Origin: an uncultured Ruminococcus sp. | GTDB lineage: Bacteria > Bacillota > Clostridia > Oscillospirales > CAG-272 | DNA: 64,000 nucleotides | Assembly: GCA_964460165.1 (NCBI GenBank) | Contig: CAYWPS010000001.1 | Location: 9,384 to 73,383 of the forward strand | Direction of reading: 5' to 3' | Shown here: piece by piece, positions 4,607 through 41,589 of the stretch | Layout: each line of letters starts with the position of its first letter | How positions within the stretch are numbered: position 1 is the first letter of the stretch | Position numbers and translations under genes: made by a program | Notes under the pieces: model-generated | Databases searched by the model: none | What the model was told of the DNA's origin: nothing | Seen by the model: only the letters and a program-made list of their open reading frames with translations

Positions 4607-5661
4607 TGAGAAATCTTATAGATATCCTCGACTTTTCAACGGAGGAGATAGACTCGCTCATCGAGGTGGCAACGGACATCATAGACGACCCCGACAAGTA
4701 CCGTGACGTGTGTCACGGAAAAATACTCGGAACGCTCTTCTTCGAGCCCTCGACGAGAACCAGACTCAGCTTCACCTCGGCTATGATGTCGCTCGGCGGA
4801 CAGGTGCTCGGCTTTGACAACGCGGCATCGTCGTCCACCGCAAAGGGTGAGACCGTACAGGACACCATACGTATGGTGTCGGCTTATTCGGACATTATCG
4901 CCATGCGTCATCCAAAGGAGGGAGCTCCCATTGCGGCGTCGAGAGTCGCTACCGTGCCCGTAATAAACGCGGGCGACGGCGGTCACTACCATCCAACTCA
5001 GACGCTTACCGACCTTATAACCATCAAGCGCAAATCGGGCAGATTTGATAATCTCACCGTCGGTATATGCGGCGACCTTAAGTACGGAAGAACCGTTCAC
5101 TCGCTCATCGCGGCTATGTCGAGATACGAGAACGTGAAATTCGTGCTTATCGCTCCCGATGAGCTTAAGCTCCCGGACTACGTCAAGGAGGAATTTCTCA
5201 AGTGCTCCGAGTATATCGAAACCGCGGATCTCGAGGGTGCTATCCCATCTCTTGACATTCTCTATATGACGAGGATCCAAGCAGAGAGATTCCACGACCG
5301 TGATGAATACGAGAGGCTCAAGGACAGCTATATACTTGATTTAAGTAAGCTTAAGTTTGCAAAATCCACTCTTTCTATACTTCATCCGCTCCCCAGAGTA
5401 AACGAGATAAGCGTAGACGTTGACGATGATCCGCGCGCTCACTACTTCGAGCAGGCAGCGCTCGGAAGATATATAAGAATGGCGCTTATACTTAAGCTCC
5501 TTGACTCAGAGGGCATCGACGACCGCCGTACCGTAGGTGAGGAGAACGACTCGCTGGAGTGTAAGAACCCCCACTGTCTTTCCATAACCGAAAGAGGCAT
5601 AAAGAAGCTCTTTAAAAACGGAAAGTGCATCTACTGCGACCAGACCGCAGAGAGAAAATAA
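4606..5661 (+). CDS. pyrB: aspartate carbamoyltransferase catalytic chain with a C-terminal PyrI-like zinc domain
   Basis: STRTR, HPTQ and HPLPR motifs in the first ~300 aa. The last ~40 aa read CKNPHC...CIYC, the pattern of the PyrI Zn domain. Confidence 0.9.
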
Positions 5662-16564: not shown

Positions 16565-19156
16565 ATGAAGAATATCGTAATGGGCATTATCGCTCACGTC
16601 GACGCCGGCAAAACGACGCTTTCAGAGGCACTGCTCTACACGAGCGGCGCGATAAGAGAGCTCGGCAGAGTAGACAGACGCGACGCGCATCTGGACACCT
16701 ATTCGCTCGAAAGAGAGCGCGGCATCACCATATTCTCAAAGCAGACCGTGCTCGACTTCGGTGACACGCACATATCGCTTATCGACACGCCCGGTCACGT
16801 AGACTTCTCCTGCGAAACGGAACGCTCACTGTCGGTACAGGACTACTGTATACTGGTTATAAGCGCAACCGACGGCATTAAGCCGCATACAAGGACTCTC
16901 TGGCAGCTGCTCGCCGCAAGGCGTATTCCCACCTTTATCTTCGTAAATAAAACTGATATCTCGGACAGGACGAGAGACGAGCTCTGCGCCGAGCTTCGCA
17001 CCGTGCTGTCGGATAGGTGCGTAAGCTTTACGCGTCCCGACACATACGAGTTCTACGACGAGGTCGCGAGCAAGGACGAGTCACTCATCGAGGAGTTTCT
17101 GGAGACGGAGACGCTGTCAGACGAAAGCATTGCCTCGGCAATAAGAAAAAGACTCGTATTCCCCTGTTTCTTCGGCTCCGCCTTAAAGCTAAAAGGAGTT
17201 GAGGAGCTTCTCGCGGGAATAGATCGATTTGTGCGTGAAACGCCCTACCCCGTGTCGCTTTTCGGCGCTAAGGCGTACAAGATAATGCGCGATCAGAACG
17301 GCAGGAGAATGACACTGGCGAAAATCACGGGCGGAACTCTCCGTCCCAAGACCATGATAGAATACAGGACCGGAAGCGGCGATACCGCCATCGAGAAGGT
17401 GGAGGAGATAAGGCTTCTTACCCACGATAGATCCAGACCGCTCAAGGAAGCCGAGCGAGGCACTCTGTGCGCCATAATCGGACCCATGGGCACCATGGCA
17501 GGCACGGGCATGGGAATTGAGGCTAATGACACCGCTATGCTGTCACCCGTGTTAGATTACCGAATGATCTTACCAAAGGACGTCAGCCCCTACGACGCGT
17601 ATCTGCGGCTCGCGTCTCTCTCGGAGGAGGACCCCTCGCTGGGTATCAGCTGGGAGACCGGCGCGAAGGAGATCCGCGTCAGCCTTATGGGAGAGATACA
17701 GCTCGAGGTGCTCAAGCGGATGATACTCGAGCGATTCGGCATGGCGATCGAATTTGACGAGGGAAGCATACTCTACCGCGAGACCGTGGAGGATGTGGTG
17801 ATAGGATCGGGACATTTCGAGCCGTTAAGACACTACGCCGAGACGCACGTGAGAATCGAGCCCCTGCCGGAAGGATCGGGTACGGTATCAGCAAGCGACT
17901 GCTCCGCCGACATCCTTTCTTCAAATTGGCAAAGACTCGTGATGACGCACATAGACGAGCGCGTTCACCGCGGAGTTCTCATCGGCGCTCCCCTGACCGA
18001 CGTTAAGATAACGCTTATAGCGGGCAAGGCGCATCTCAAGCACACCGAGGGCGGAGATTTCCGCCAGGCGACCTATCGCGCGATAAGGCAAGGACTTATG
18101 AAGGCGAGATCGGTCATACTCGAGCCCACATTTGACTTCCGCATAGAAGTACCGACCGAATATCTTGGCAGAGTCATGACCGACGTGACCAATATGCACG
18201 GAACGTCAAAGGCGCCGGAGATATACGAGAACGTGTCCGTGCTCGAGGGCAGCTGCCCCGTAGCTACTATGCGCTCCTACGCAAGCGAGCTACGAGCCTT
18301 CACCAGAGGGGATGGCAAGATAACCATGAACGTCGGTGCCTACGTCCCCGCACATAATCAAGACGAGATAATCGCAGGATCGGGATACGATCCCATGCTC
18401 GACGAGAAAAATCCCTCAAGCTCGGTCTTCTGCAAAGCCGGCGCGGGATATGCCGTACCATGGGACGAGGCGGATGCTCTTATGCACGTACGCACCGACG
18501 GCGGAAACGGCGATGCGAGCGAGGGTACGTCGGACGTGCCCGCGAGAGCAAAAGCCGTAAAATACGGAGGCACTGCCGAGGAGGATAAGGAGCTGATGCG
18601 TATCTTTGAGGCGACCTACGGCAAGATCAAGCCGAGAAGGGTAGCCGAGAGAAAGGAAAACAAGGCTCCCGAGGAAGCTCCGCGCAAAAGAGGTAAGGCG
18701 TACAAAAATCTTGAGGAGCACGTCATCCTTGACGGATACAACGTCATCTTCGCTTGGGACGAGCTGAGCAAGACGGCACAGATCGATCTCTCGCTCGCCA
18801 GAGATATTCTGACGAGAATAATGTGCAGCTACACCGCCTTCCGAAAATGCGAAGCAACCATCGTATTTGATGCATACAAACGACACGGCGGTGAAGGAAG
18901 TGAGGAAAAGTGCGGTAACGTGACCGTGGTGTACACCAAGGAGGCAGAGACCGCCGATGCGTATATCGAGAGGGTAAGCAAGGCTCTCGTCAGCGACTAT
19001 ACCGTCAGAGTCGTAACCTCCGACCTCGAGCAGCAATACGTCGTGCTTGGAAACGGGGCGCTCCGAGTCAGCGCCAAGGAATTCCGCCGTGAGATCGAAA
19101 ATACGACGAGCGAAATAAATGAAGCTGTCGATAAAATGAAATATAAGTCAAAATAA
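16565..19156 (+). CDS. TetM/EF-G-like translational GTPase fused to a C-terminal YacP/Rae1-like NYN ribonuclease domain
   Basis: G1 AHVDAGKTT, G3 DTPGH, G4 NKTD. The C-terminal ~146 aa read LDGYN / VFDAY / ETADAYIE / VTSDLEQ / GALRVSAKEF. The ATG at 16565 lies 7 nt after GGAGA; a GTG at 16559 is an alternative start. Confidence 0.85.
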   Translation: MKNIVMGIIAHVDAGKTTLSEALLYTSGAIRELGRVDRRDAHLDTYSLERERGITIFSKQTVLDFGDTHISLIDTPGHVDFSCETERSLSVQDYCILVISATDGIKPHTRTLWQLLAARRIPTFIFVNKTDISDRTRDELCAELRTVLSDRCVSFTRPDTYEFYDEVASKDESLIEEFLETETLSDESIASAIRKRLVFPCFFGSALKLKGVEELLAGIDRFVRETPYPVSLFGAKAYKIMRDQNGRRMTLAKITGGTLRPKTMIEYRTGSGDTAIEKVEEIRLLTHDRSRPLKEAERGTLCAIIGPMGTMAGTGMGIEANDTAMLSPVLDYRMILPKDVSPYDAYLRLASLSEEDPSLGISWETGAKEIRVSLMGEIQLEVLKRMILERFGMAIEFDEGSILYRETVEDVVIGSGHFEPLRHYAETHVRIEPLPEGSGTVSASDCSADILSSNWQRLVMTHIDERVHRGVLIGAPLTDVKITLIAGKAHLKHTEGGDFRQATYRAIRQGLMKARSVILEPTFDFRIEVPTEYLGRVMTDVTNMHGTSKAPEIYENVSVLEGSCPVATMRSYASELRAFTRGDGKITMNVGAYVPAHNQDEIIAGSGYDPMLDEKNPSSSVFCKAGAGYAVPWDEADALMHVRTDGGNGDASEGTSDVPARAKAVKYGGTAEEDKELMRIFEATYGKIKPRRVAERKENKAPEEAPRKRGKAYKNLEEHVILDGYNVIFAWDELSKTAQIDLSLARDILTRIMCSYTAFRKCEATIVFDAYKRHGGEGSEEKCGNVTVVYTKEAETADAYIERVSKALVSDYTVRVVTSDLEQQYVVLGNGALRVSAKEFRREIENTTSEINEAVDKMKYKSK

Positions 19157-19171
19157 AAAACAGAGCAAGAA

Positions 19172-19362
19172 TAGCGTGATACTCTTAACGGAGCATTCAC
19201 GCTAAACGATGTTTGCCCTTGCGGGCAAGTGATGTTCACTTCGTGAATGATGTTGTGCCTTCGGCACAGTGCGCAAACATCACATCACTGCGAGCATTTG
19301 CGAGCAACATCATTATGCGTAGCATAACATCACTTTTGCGTCAGCAAAAACATCACTAACAG
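19172..19362. repeat. foldback array: GTGATGTT motifs (x3-4), then AACATCAC motifs (x4), separated by short unrelated hairpins
   Basis: GATGTT at 19208, 19231 and 19249. AACATC at 19276, 19306, 19326 and 19349. Hairpins at 19172-19204, 19214-19227, 19237-19245, 19255-19267, 19314-19326 and 19334-19349. Confidence 0.6.
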
Positions 19363-19418
19363 AAAAAAGAGCAAACATTCAAGATTTTTCGTCTTGCGTG
19401 TTTTGCTCTTTCTGTTTG
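19362..19418. terminator. bidirectional terminator between convergent genes
   Basis: AGAGCAAACA (19368-19377) pairs with TGTTTTGCTCT (19399-19409), with an inner CAAGA/TCTTG helix. A6 lies upstream and a T-rich tract downstream. Confidence 0.65.
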
Positions 19419-19558
19419 TAATAGGGGTTTGGGCTTAGCCCATACTTGCATTTGACCGGTCAAATGCGATGCTTGCACTTTTGGTAAATTGTGAATTCTC
19501 CGCTAAGGATATCACCCTATAGAATGAATCTCCTTTTTACTCTTACTCTTTTTGTGTT

Positions 19559-20509
19559 TTATAGCGATAATGTAAAGAACGTTTTACTTTCAGTGCGTCT
19601 TATCGGCTCCATATACTTGGAGGTCATTTTAATTGATTTTTCATTTTCATTCAGAATTTCAGCCGTGAGAGTTGATAATCCTATGCGTCCGGCAAGCTCT
19701 ATCAACGCCCTCGTAGCACGAGAGCCGATGCCTCGCGAGTGGCGATCCCTCATGACCCTGACCGCTATGGACGCCTTGCCGCGATAATCAAAGCCGTATA
19801 TCGTCGCCTCGCCGGCAAGCTCGCCGCCCTCACGCACGGCAAGGGTAATGGCTACGCCGTCAGCAAGCTCGCGCCTTACAACCTCGAGATAGAAATCCGC
19901 GTCGCCCTCGGGATTATCACTGTCCACGTCGTAACCCCAATATTTGTTGAGATCACGGTCGCGGCAAAGCTCCGCGTATCTCTCCCTGTCTGCATCGGAG
20001 AGCTCGTCAAGCGTAATGCCGTCAAGCTCTATCGAGGGTATTTCGTCGAGCATATCACACTCATTATTGACCTTAACGAAGAAAGCGTCCTCATCATCCT
20101 CATAGGCGTAGGCGTCTACGTGCGGAAAGACCGAGCATAAAAACTCAAGCTCGTCCCTCGGAACGTCGGTAATTATCAGCGGCACCATCTCGCGCGCGGA
20201 ATACGCGGCAAGACTGATACACGCCCCCTCGGCATCCGCTCCGTCGGTCAGCATAAAGGGCAGCGGAAACACGTACCTTTCTCCGTCGTATACGCGGGCG
20301 TATAGCACCTCGTCGCAGTATGCGAGCGCAAGCGACATATTCTCGCCTATGGATTCCGCAAGACCGAGGATTATCTCAAGCGCGTCGCCCGAAAGCCCGT
20401 CCGGGATGGATAATATCTCTTTTATTCTTTTCTCGTTACAAACTCCTTGAGCTTCTGCCAGGTCCTCGCCGAGAATTTCTTGAATTTTTCGAAAACGGAT
20501 ATCAGCCAC
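19559..20509 (-). CDS. GNAT family N-acetyltransferase with an N-terminal domain of unknown function
   Basis: The C-terminal ~150 aa have a GNAT-like core (RHSRGIGSRATRALIELA). The start is uncertain because the ORF overlaps the upstream histidine kinase gene by 88 nt. Confidence 0.65.
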   Translation of the reverse strand: MADIRFRKIQEILGEDLAEAQGVCNEKRIKEILSIPDGLSGDALEIILGLAESIGENMSLALAYCDEVLYARVYDGERYVFPLPFMLTDGADAEGACISLAAYSAREMVPLIITDVPRDELEFLCSVFPHVDAYAYEDDEDAFFVKVNNECDMLDEIPSIELDGITLDELSDADRERYAELCRDRDLNKYWGYDVDSDNPEGDADFYLEVVRRELADGVAITLAVREGGELAGEATIYGFDYRGKASIAVRVMRDRHSRGIGSRATRALIELAGRIGLSTLTAEILNENEKSIKMTSKYMEPIRRTESKTFFTLSL

Positions 20510-41334: not shown

Positions 41335-41583
41335 AACAAAAAACGCCACCCGTTCTCAGTCTTGAGACGAATGACATCTGTCAGCCGCGGTACCACTCAA
41401 ATTCGCGCTTACGCGCCTCGGGGACTCAACCAAGTCCTGCACCGATAACGCTGTGCTTGCGGATCGCCCTACATATCGAACGATCGGCTCGGGAGCCATA
41501 GACCATCACCCTTCAGCTGCCGTCTCTCACCAACCGCGGCTCTCTTTGAGCTTATCTGTGATATCCTCTCCGTCATCGTCTTT
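41335..41583 (-). promoter_or_regulatory. T-box leader (tRNA-sensing riboswitch) with terminator
   Basis: On the minus strand: AUGA...AGAGGA GA-type motif, AGAGAG bulge, the conserved T-box sequence AAUUUGAGUGGUACCGCGG (41403-41385), then a long stem followed by U6 (41376-41335). Confidence 0.8.
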
Positions 41584-41589
41584 ACGATA

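Follow-up and report, generated by a model that had tools for sequence, protein, structure and literature searches.

A hairpin-array repeat element related to the Gut-1 motif at a transcription terminator of an uncultured Ruminococcus

The window analysed here is a stretch of 64,000 nucleotides (nt) from an uncultured Ruminococcus sp. (contig CAYWPS010000001.1). Within it, a gene for an EF-G/TetM-like GTPase fused to a C-terminal YacP-type NYN nuclease domain (hereafter GTPase-NYN) converges on a GNAT gene, and the spacer between the two holds an element of 349 bp (19172-19520) that begins 16 nt past the GTPase-NYN stop. An earlier note on this DNA had described part of the element as a foldback array of short motifs and hairpins and had left three readings side by side: a structured RNA, possibly serving the adjacent NYN nuclease, an insertion resembling a miniature inverted-repeat transposable element (MITE), and an array of protein-binding sites. 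The region 18900-19700 was reread, a repeat finder was run, and comparison loci, labelled with L-numbers (L003, L121 and so on), were fetched. The outcome leaves little doubt that this is a repeat element inserted in a terminator and unrelated to the NYN gene. As a feature of the window it is an ordinary copy of such an element; what is new is its architecture, its target and its link to the Gut-1 motif and to Avd-like genes.

An insertion between two convergent genes

Five loci carry GTPase-NYN orthologues that are 86-87% identical, in the gene order ABC, GTPase-NYN, convergent GNAT, histidine kinase. The spacer between the convergent genes measures 60-141 bp in these loci against 402 bp in the window, a difference for which the element accounts, and the array profile finds no match in any of the five. 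The empty site in L130, one of the five, holds an intact terminator, AAAAACGGAGCAAG-ACTTTGA-CTTGCTCCGTTTTTT, whose 5' arm matches window positions 19157-19171. When 19172-19520 is taken out of the window, the flanks that meet (AAAAACAGAGCAAGAA on the left, AGAATGAAT--CTCC-TTTTT on the right) align to this terminator, the right flank facing ACTTTGACTTGCTCCGTTTT in L130. It is because of the arm match and this alignment that the element is placed in the loop of the host terminator. Relative to the orthologous loci the element is shown to be an insertion, and to lie in the apical loop of a bidirectional intrinsic terminator; the 3' arm of that terminator, beyond 19520, has on the same alignment since decayed.

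Homology with four other copies (L003, L010, L069 and L021) begins exactly at 19172 and ends at about 19520, and the flanks are unrelated. The two ends form terminal inverted repeats (TIRs): 19172-19200 agrees with the reverse complement of 19491-19519 at 24 of 29 positions, with an alignment score of 19 against 5.5±1.3 (maximum 12) for 2000 random 34-mer pairs, and these are the only matches of the end sequence in the window. The terminal sequences of the element family are TAGCGTGATRCTCTTAACGGAG and, in subfamily 2, ACGGCGACCTGCGATAAAGCAGGT. No open reading frame (ORF) of at least 50 amino acids (aa) is contained in 19172-19520; one on the minus strand (18997-19239) overlaps the left end. 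The features of the locus are as follows.

16565-19156, plus strand: EF-G/TetM-like GTPase fused to a C-terminal YacP-type NYN nuclease domain; ATG 16565 is the called start.
19157-19171, plus strand: remnant of the host terminator 5' arm (A-tract and stem), aligned to AAAAACGGAGCAAG at the empty site L130.
19172-19204, plus strand: left end module, comprising the TIR (19172-19200) and also a hairpin of its own (19172-79/19197-204); recognised from the TIR match and the start of homology.
19205-19269, plus strand: left hairpin array; sub-threshold Rfam Gut-1 match and compensatory changes in homologous hairpins.
19205-13, 19228-36 and 19246-54, plus strand: left-array linkers, (A/G/C)(T)GATGTT.
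19207-19213, plus strand: forward motif CGATGTT, from rereading.
19229-19236, plus strand: forward motif GTGATGTT, from rereading.
19247-19254, plus strand: forward motif ATGATGTT, from rereading.
19214-27, 19237-45 and 19255-67, plus strand: left-array hairpins H1, H3 and H4.
19208-19218 with 19271-19281, plus strand: long-range helix, its 5' strand formed by the first linker and the 5' arm of H1.
19268-19288, plus strand: centre, the meeting point of the arrays; sequence conserved across copies.
19276-19357, plus strand: right hairpin array, with reverse-complemented linkers (AACATCAY); covariation in H5-H7 and a weak minus-strand Gut-1 match.
19289-19306, 19314-26 and 19334-49, plus strand: right-array hairpins H5, H6 and H7.
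19358-19418, strand unassigned: long hairpin inside the element that resembles a terminator, flanked by an A-tract and, on the opposite side, a T-tract; from other copies and folding.
19419-19490, plus strand: right internal module, with hairpin GGGCTTAGCCC (19431-41) and the perfect 18-bp palindrome CATTTGACCGGTCAAATG (19449-66); from other copies.
19491-19520, minus strand: right TIR and element end; TIR match, and homology with other copies stops at about 19520.
19521-19540, plus strand: decayed 3' arm and T-tract of the interrupted host terminator, from the flank alignment to L130.

The motifs, mini-hairpins and repeats that the earlier note had listed all stand. The stop codon TAA (19154-19156) and all the mini-hairpins are present, as are the 8-bp stem 19172-79/19197-204, the direct repeat TGCGAGCA at 19289 and 19299, and the reverse motifs AACATCAY at 19276, 19306, 19326 and 19349. 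The repeat finder recovered the inverted-repeat pairs 19228-36/19326-34, 19246-55/19305-14 and 19208-14/19348-54, and a motif scan gave the spacing of 18-23 bp. The three forward motifs are likewise present, although they start 1-2 nt away from where they had been placed. Their clustering is not due to chance, because RTGATGTT occurs nine times in the 64 kb, six of the nine within 130 bp (19229-19356), while none of 100 shuffles (mean 2.7 per 64 kb) reached nine.

What had been overlooked is that the two motif sets are two opposed arrays with their junction at 19268-19288. The doubled TGCGAGCA is hairpin H5, with a tandem G.A/A.G mismatch, and most relatives have one hairpin more in the left array than the window copy. 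The array as first described is real, but the conserved unit reaches about 160 bp further right, to 19520. The hairpin 19366-75/19402-11, which had been taken for the local terminator, exists but is internal to the element and conserved in other copies. Similarly, the direct repeats that bracket the array (19152-68/19358-74) are 82% identical but are no target duplication, since one is the host terminator arm and the other the arm of the element-internal hairpin. The suggestion of a MITE-like foldback insertion into a terminator was essentially right, but it misplaced both the terminator and the boundaries.

The stem of the internal long hairpin reads GAGCAAACA/TGTTTTGCTC in the window, L122, L124 and L125, and GAGAGGACA/TGTTCTCTC in L003, L010 and L069, which is a compensatory exchange. 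As a putative terminator, this hairpin (19358-19418) probably now ends both convergent transcripts. L003, L010, L069 and L125 retain the right internal module, as does another, larger element of L069. The arms of its palindrome are conserved and the central four bases vary as a loop would (CCGG, CCTG, CGAT, CTAG), so that 19449-19466 could be a hairpin or a dimer-binding site. The larger element in L069 (5750-6750, minus strand) combines a window-type right end and palindrome module with a variant left end hairpin, and has about 330 bp of unrelated sequence where the arrays would be.

Conserved hairpins in a dispersed family

Folding of the array gave z-scores of -6.3 on the plus strand and -7.0 on the minus strand against shuffles, and the element with its flanks reaches a minimum free energy of -136.5 kcal/mol (z -8.2), with the TIRs closing the fold. 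Covariation was counted on an alignment (A2) of 19 sequences of the array core. Over the 61 tested pairs 93.2% are paired, against 27-50% in slid controls, and both sides change at 27 of the 61, against 13.3±2.1 in shuffles (none of 500 as high). The local hairpins, 25 of whose 37 pairs covary, are strongly supported by these compensatory changes among relatives. A long-range helix between 19208-18 and 19271-81 (A2 columns 4-14/92-102) is 98.6% paired, with compensatory changes at 4 of 11 pairs (0/500 shuffles as high), and the same relation holds in GTGAAAT-type arrays. This pattern of substitutions shows selection on the hairpins and on a single long-range helix. As for the long helix interrupted by stacked four-way junctions that the earlier note had predicted, the sequences are compatible with it but do not demonstrate it: the nested linker-linker helices are 95-99% paired, yet among their 24 pairs 22 show no covariation (it is confined to the R/Y position, with exceptions), and L124 breaks three linkers.

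The stems are almost purely Watson-Crick: a tally of 83 distinct hairpin units gave about 1% wobble pairs. Read on the AACATCA-sense strand, the loops are GAA (22), AAA (9), GTA (7), GCA (5), GTCA (4), GTAA (3) and GCAA (3), and those of the GNA/GNNA type (GAA, GTA, GCA, GTCA, GTAA, GCAA) are closed by C-G. A tandem G.A is conserved in 14-16 of the 19 copies, and longer variants have it in the following hairpin too. Loops of the c-GNA-g and GNNA kinds and sheared tandem G.A pairs lend particular stability to DNA hairpins, as they do to RNA. Here, the stabilising loops and G.A pairs lie on the AACATCA-sense strand, that is, on opposite physical strands in the two halves, each running 5' to 3' toward the nearer end. 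Wobble pairs were also tried as a means of assigning the strand and were rejected as uninformative: raw counts are 15 against 6 in the left array and 2 against 4 in the right, and 10 of the 15 left-array wobbles fall in two pairs (a linker boundary and a poorly aligned column), leaving about 5 against 6. A comparison of folding energies between the strands was likewise set aside, as asymmetric added context had biased it.

Relatives of the array were sought by scanning a genome collection for three spaced motifs. This yielded 120 loci, many of them unrelated coding or tandem repeats, of which 36 match the array profile; four further copies came from metagenome loci (4/4 matching). Among viral contigs, 2 of 120 pattern loci match the profile, weakly (E about 1e-4 to 1e-3), and the 120 rows of the viral-contig scan were all unrelated tandem or coding repeats with no hairpin-type array. 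BLASTN of the element against plasmid and phage collections gave no match. The matching loci whose record titles were read are all gut or rumen Clostridia metagenome-assembled genomes (MAGs), including Oscillospiraceae, Acutalibacteraceae, Ruminococcus, Faecousia and Avispirillum.

The copies sit at unrelated sites, usually splitting a terminator hairpin, and some adjoin tRNA genes. Copies of subfamily 1 are 73-85% identical, and those of subfamily 2 in three species-level MAGs (L030, L072 and L118) are 98-99.5% identical, with flanks at random level (44-59%) in both; subfamily 2 places its different TIR around the same arrays. In L003, L069, L030, L104, L092, L124 and L125 the two flanks of the copy can pair with one another and bear A- and T-tracts, which makes them split terminators (for example, AAAAACTCTCCGTC / GAACGGAGAGTTTTT in L003 and AAAAAAGACCACCCGTG / CACGGGTGGTCCTTTTTT in L069). 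The duplex energy of a copy's own flanks averages -20.6 kcal/mol, against -9.6±3.7 for mismatched flank pairs. Terminator loops are occupied repeatedly and precisely by an element that brings a terminator-like hairpin of its own.

Two or three copies lie within 6-8 kb in L069, L107, L088 and L060. Assemblies break inside arrays, as in L001, which ends at the equivalent of 19211, and in L262-L270. Short-read assemblies of gut Clostridia are interrupted by these arrays, which annotation may mistake for small RNAs (sRNAs) or terminators.

Linkers are uniform within an array and differ between arrays, even inside one locus. Neighbouring arrays in L060 (3765-4100) have the linkers TGATGTT and CGATATG, and each is preceded by the same GGGGCGAGCATTGCTCGTCC hairpin module. 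Stand-alone terminators of the form AAGAGAGAACAxTTCGG...CCGAAATGTTCTCTCTT occur in L129 (5146-5190, an orthologous empty site), L021 (~3777) and L069 (~6415), and are near-identical to the internal hairpin of the copies L003, L010 and L069. This likeness suggests that terminator hairpins are themselves shared or exchanged modules in these genomes.

Kinship with Gut-1 and linkage to PF05635 genes

At gathering thresholds, Rfam finds nothing in the window and only tRNAs in 18 related loci. A permissive scan, however, matches Gut-1 (RF01706) at 19204-19276 on the plus strand with 36.2 bits (E 1e-5; gathering score 50), and more weakly at 19302-19358 on the minus strand (24.4 bits). These two array halves are the only Gut-1 matches in the window, and none of the TGATGTT-type copies in the 18 related loci reaches the Gut-1 threshold. 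Gut-1 was described as a human-gut metagenome motif of 43 sequences without assigned function, and was rated certainly RNA by its discoverers (Weinberg et al. 2010, PMC2864571).

The Gut-1 consensus places three variable hairpins between GUGAAAU linkers, which is the design of the window array with another linker; the defining architecture, at least three variable hairpins with a repeated GUGAxxU linker, is found in the window. Both have 3-4 small, sequence-variable hairpins and a conserved 7-8-nt linker starting GUGA, and both come from gut-derived Clostridia-type sequences. They differ in the linker itself (GUGAUGUU in the window, GUGAAAU or GUGAUAUU in Gut-1), and Rfam models the left half alone, as an sRNA, whereas the window copy is embedded in a TIR-bounded element. 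When flanks are included, several Gut-1 seed loci have a left array, a centre and a second array with the complementary linker (GUGAUAUU ... AAUAUCAC), and they lie after a tRNA and terminator or between two complementary flanks, as in a split hairpin. Canonical GTGAAAT/ATTTCAC arrays are present in L121 and L271-L283. The left array is shown to be a sequence variant of the Rfam Gut-1 motif. The orphan Gut-1 "sRNA" is one of the two opposed arrays of an inverted module with the behaviour of a repeat element.

Some related arrays are accompanied by a gene. A PF05635 gene for an Avd-like four-helix-bundle protein of 115-119 aa, labelled "23S rRNA IVS protein" (IVS, intervening sequence), lies directly past the right array on the same strand in L031, L098, L107 and L111. 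For two L031-like proteins (P0198 and P0199), all 20 fetched places match the array profile just 5' of the gene. The L121-like clade, 52% identical to the L031 protein, has arrays upstream in 11 of the 12 places inspected, with GTGAAAT on the left and ATTTCAC on the right (in L121 itself, arrays at 4783-4954 and gene start at 5017); the twelfth, L284, has only 27 nt of upstream sequence. Given enough upstream sequence, the arrangement runs from a terminator through the left array, centre and right array to a promoter and the PF05635 gene; the -35 box of that promoter touches the last linker or overlaps with it. Gene position thus shows array and PF05635 gene to be linked in the gene-bearing forms. 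The linkage is tight and previously unremarked. Searches of open-access papers that covered Gut-1, terminator-borne MITEs and the PF05635 protein gave no description of the element.

The linker tracks the protein clade: GTGATGT goes with L031-like proteins, GTGAAAT with L121-like ones and GTGATAT with a decayed gene in L088. This tracking provides a concrete, testable binding hypothesis. The block of about 1.1 kb that holds terminator, arrays, PF05635 gene and a small ORF has varied left and right neighbours, and often lies beside tRNA genes and recombinase islands. For instance, comparison of L251 (1255-2347) with L252-L258 shows the block with at least five left and three right neighbours, and both of its ends read CAACAAAAAAG. 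Blocks of the L251 type have an overlapping 145-aa ORF and adjoin tRNA genes, tRNA-3'-end-like remnants and serine-recombinase islands. The ORF 3' of the PF05635 gene was considered as a conserved partner and rejected, as it differs among cassettes (145, 90, 67 or ~103 aa, or none). PF05635 genes are very abundant, with at least 8000 matches at E<=1e-10, and the 120 best-scoring clusters listed lie mostly on contigs of less than 2 kb. A figure legend of a CRISPR-discovery study names "23S rRNA IVP" among proteins newly associated with CRISPR adaptation modules (PMC10910872).

Competing explanations and known systems

The favoured statement is that the window holds a gene-less, MITE-like copy of a Gut-1-type hairpin-array module, inserted in a terminator loop, with hairpins that would act as single-stranded DNA (ssDNA) and linkers that would serve as factor sites; in this full form it is put forward with moderate confidence. 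The element would spread as a non-autonomous MITE-like unit that targets the loops of terminators or other hairpins. It would be tolerated in terminators, at low cost to the host, since the two ends pair, the interior folds on itself and the A-tract/T-tract hairpin that it brings (19358-19418) could terminate both transcripts. The hairpins would act in single-stranded nucleic acid, likelier DNA than one RNA; ssDNA is preferred because the stems are near-pure Watson-Crick and because the two halves have their stabilising loops and G.A pairs on opposite physical strands. The identical linkers may be recognition sites for a lineage-specific trans factor, for which the best candidate is the PF05635 protein encoded directly 3' of gene-linked arrays, although its role as the linker-reading factor is tentative and would more readily be bet against than for.

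A broader proposal is that Gut-1-type arrays are the cis element of an undescribed system, in which the PF05635 protein would read the 8-nt linkers between DNA or RNA mini-hairpins and co-evolve with them. The cassettes beside tRNA genes would then be parental, and the TIR-bounded copies gene-less, trans-dependent derivatives. This proposal is speculative and doubtful. If true, both the orphan Gut-1 motif and the Avd-family members outside diversity-generating retroelements would acquire a function, and a class of elements homing to hairpin loops would be defined, with terminators as targets here and rRNA helices in the classical IVS.

Several observations weigh against the favoured statement. 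The window has one copy in 64 kb, and its flanks pair weakly (-7.3 kcal/mol), an exception to the other copies. Different end modules can enclose the same arrays, and L123 is a chimera of the two subfamilies; both are unusual for a simple TIR transposon. When the flanking ORFs of about 36 loci were clustered all against all, only PF05635, BspA-type LRR and MatE proteins recurred, with no transposase or other enzyme near a copy, and no autonomous partner sharing the TIRs was identified. Copy junctions have no consistent target-site duplication, with TA possibly duplicated in three of six copies (window, L003 and L124). In L124 (4811-4983, minus strand), all three right linkers have become AACTTCAC in place of AACATCAC, with TGATGTT retained in the left array; no simple model explains such a concerted change without compensation. 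The co-variation of linker and protein could be plain linkage by descent, and the covariation in the stems would equally support a folded RNA. Finally, the argument for strand and DNA draws on loop types, G.A pairs and scarce wobble.

A folded RNA is indeed one of the rivals: a functional structured non-coding RNA, either a Gut-1-type sRNA or a domain of a 3' untranslated region (3'-UTR), would act from one strand, with linkers that titrate an RNA-binding protein or pair with RNA. The strong covariation in the hairpins and long-range helix, the very negative folding z-scores and the similarity to a motif judged certainly RNA all speak for it, and tandem G.A pairs and GNRA loops are RNA motifs too. 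In addition, transcription of the window array is probable from its place between the end of a gene and a terminator-like hairpin. However, the promoter search found no promoter in or beside the element, and the gene-linked arrays lie between a terminator and a promoter, where little transcription is expected. For an RNA family the wobble share of about 1% is remarkably small, the loops and G.A pairs that add stability change strand between the halves, and presence or absence at orthologous loci, TIRs and unrelated flanks form the distribution of a repeat element, all of which makes a one-strand RNA unlikely. An array of binding sites on double-stranded DNA, iteron- or operator-like, with sites about two helical turns apart and palindromic spacers of secondary importance, would suit linkers that are identical within an array and vary by array or lineage (GTGAAAT, GTGATAT, GTGATGT, CGATATG in L060 and AACTTCAC in L124). 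The spacing of 18-23 bp fits as well, and the last linker meets the PF05635 -35 box as an autoregulatory operator would. Yet duplex binding gives no reason for 25 of 37 compensated spacer pairs, for GNA/GNNA loops or for the conserved tandem G.A, and it leaves the TIRs and the terminator-loop insertion unexplained; it is regarded as quite unlikely.

The idea of a gene-specific 3'-UTR element, by which the GTPase-NYN mRNA would offer the NYN nuclease a substrate or decoy, as the earlier note had suggested, or a stabiliser, draws on position only, 16 nt past the stop of a YacP-type NYN gene. The co-occurrence that such a role would entail is missing: the element is absent from the five syntenic orthologous loci, and none of about 40 homologous arrays adjoins a GTPase-NYN gene. 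The same element also sits in unrelated terminators and beside tRNA genes. A role of this kind is therefore extremely improbable. On these comparisons the GTPase-NYN gene is a bystander, and the tempting link between a structured RNA and the NYN nuclease is removed.

As a repeat element, the window copy invites comparison with MITEs and foldback repeats such as Correia/NEMIS in Neisseria, the pneumococcal BOX, RUP and SPRITE, and ERIC. Like them it is small, non-coding and intergenic, has TIRs, exists in many copies and folds strongly on itself, and its presence/absence polymorphism and copies at unrelated sites agree with the definition of a MITE. Modular construction with variable numbers of internal units (boxB in BOX) and terminator-like hairpins are also known among such repeats; BOX, RUP and SPRITE are described in PMC3049150. 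The present element differs in that no cognate transposase or autonomous insertion sequence (IS) is found near its copies and no clear target duplication is seen. Furthermore, its internal units are conserved in structure and linker rather than in hairpin sequence, and it inserts in terminator loops.

REP, BIME and REPIN elements share other traits with it: extragenic palindromes at gene 3' ends, mosaics of opposed hairpins, a short conserved single-stranded motif beside each hairpin, an ssDNA hairpin logic and loops as insertion targets. However, REP stems are conserved in sequence and 20-40 nt long, whereas stems here are 4-7 bp and freely variable. Membership in REP/BIME was rejected on this ground, only linkers being conserved, and because no RAYT-like gene recurs. 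IS that target hairpins include the IS110-family ISPpu9/ISPpu10 (PMC8450116, PMC12288879) and also IS1397. In contrast to IS that target REP, the hairpin-bearing element here is the inserted DNA and not the target. No RAYT, IS200/IS605 or IS110 genes were seen among the flanking ORFs of about 36 loci.

The 23S rRNA IVS, which can carry PF05635 S23p/Avd-like ORFs (PMC10053308), resembles the element in having complementary ends, in occupying the apical loop of a functional RNA hairpin and in extending its stem, and resembles the array relatives in its tight link to PF05635 genes. Here, however, the host hairpin is a transcription terminator and not an rRNA helix, the window copy has no ORF, and PF05635 genes flank related arrays and are not demonstrably inside the split hairpin. 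Nor is RNase III processing known for the element, in contrast to the 23S rRNA IVS.

Two further observations concern the remainder of the window. The GTPase-NYN protein has at least 8000 homologous matches at E<=1e-50, some of which NCBI labels TetM/TetW/TetO/TetS ribosomal protection proteins, ignoring the nuclease domain. At 41360-41585 on the minus strand there is a match to the T-box leader (80.9 bits against a gathering score of 93, E 6e-16).

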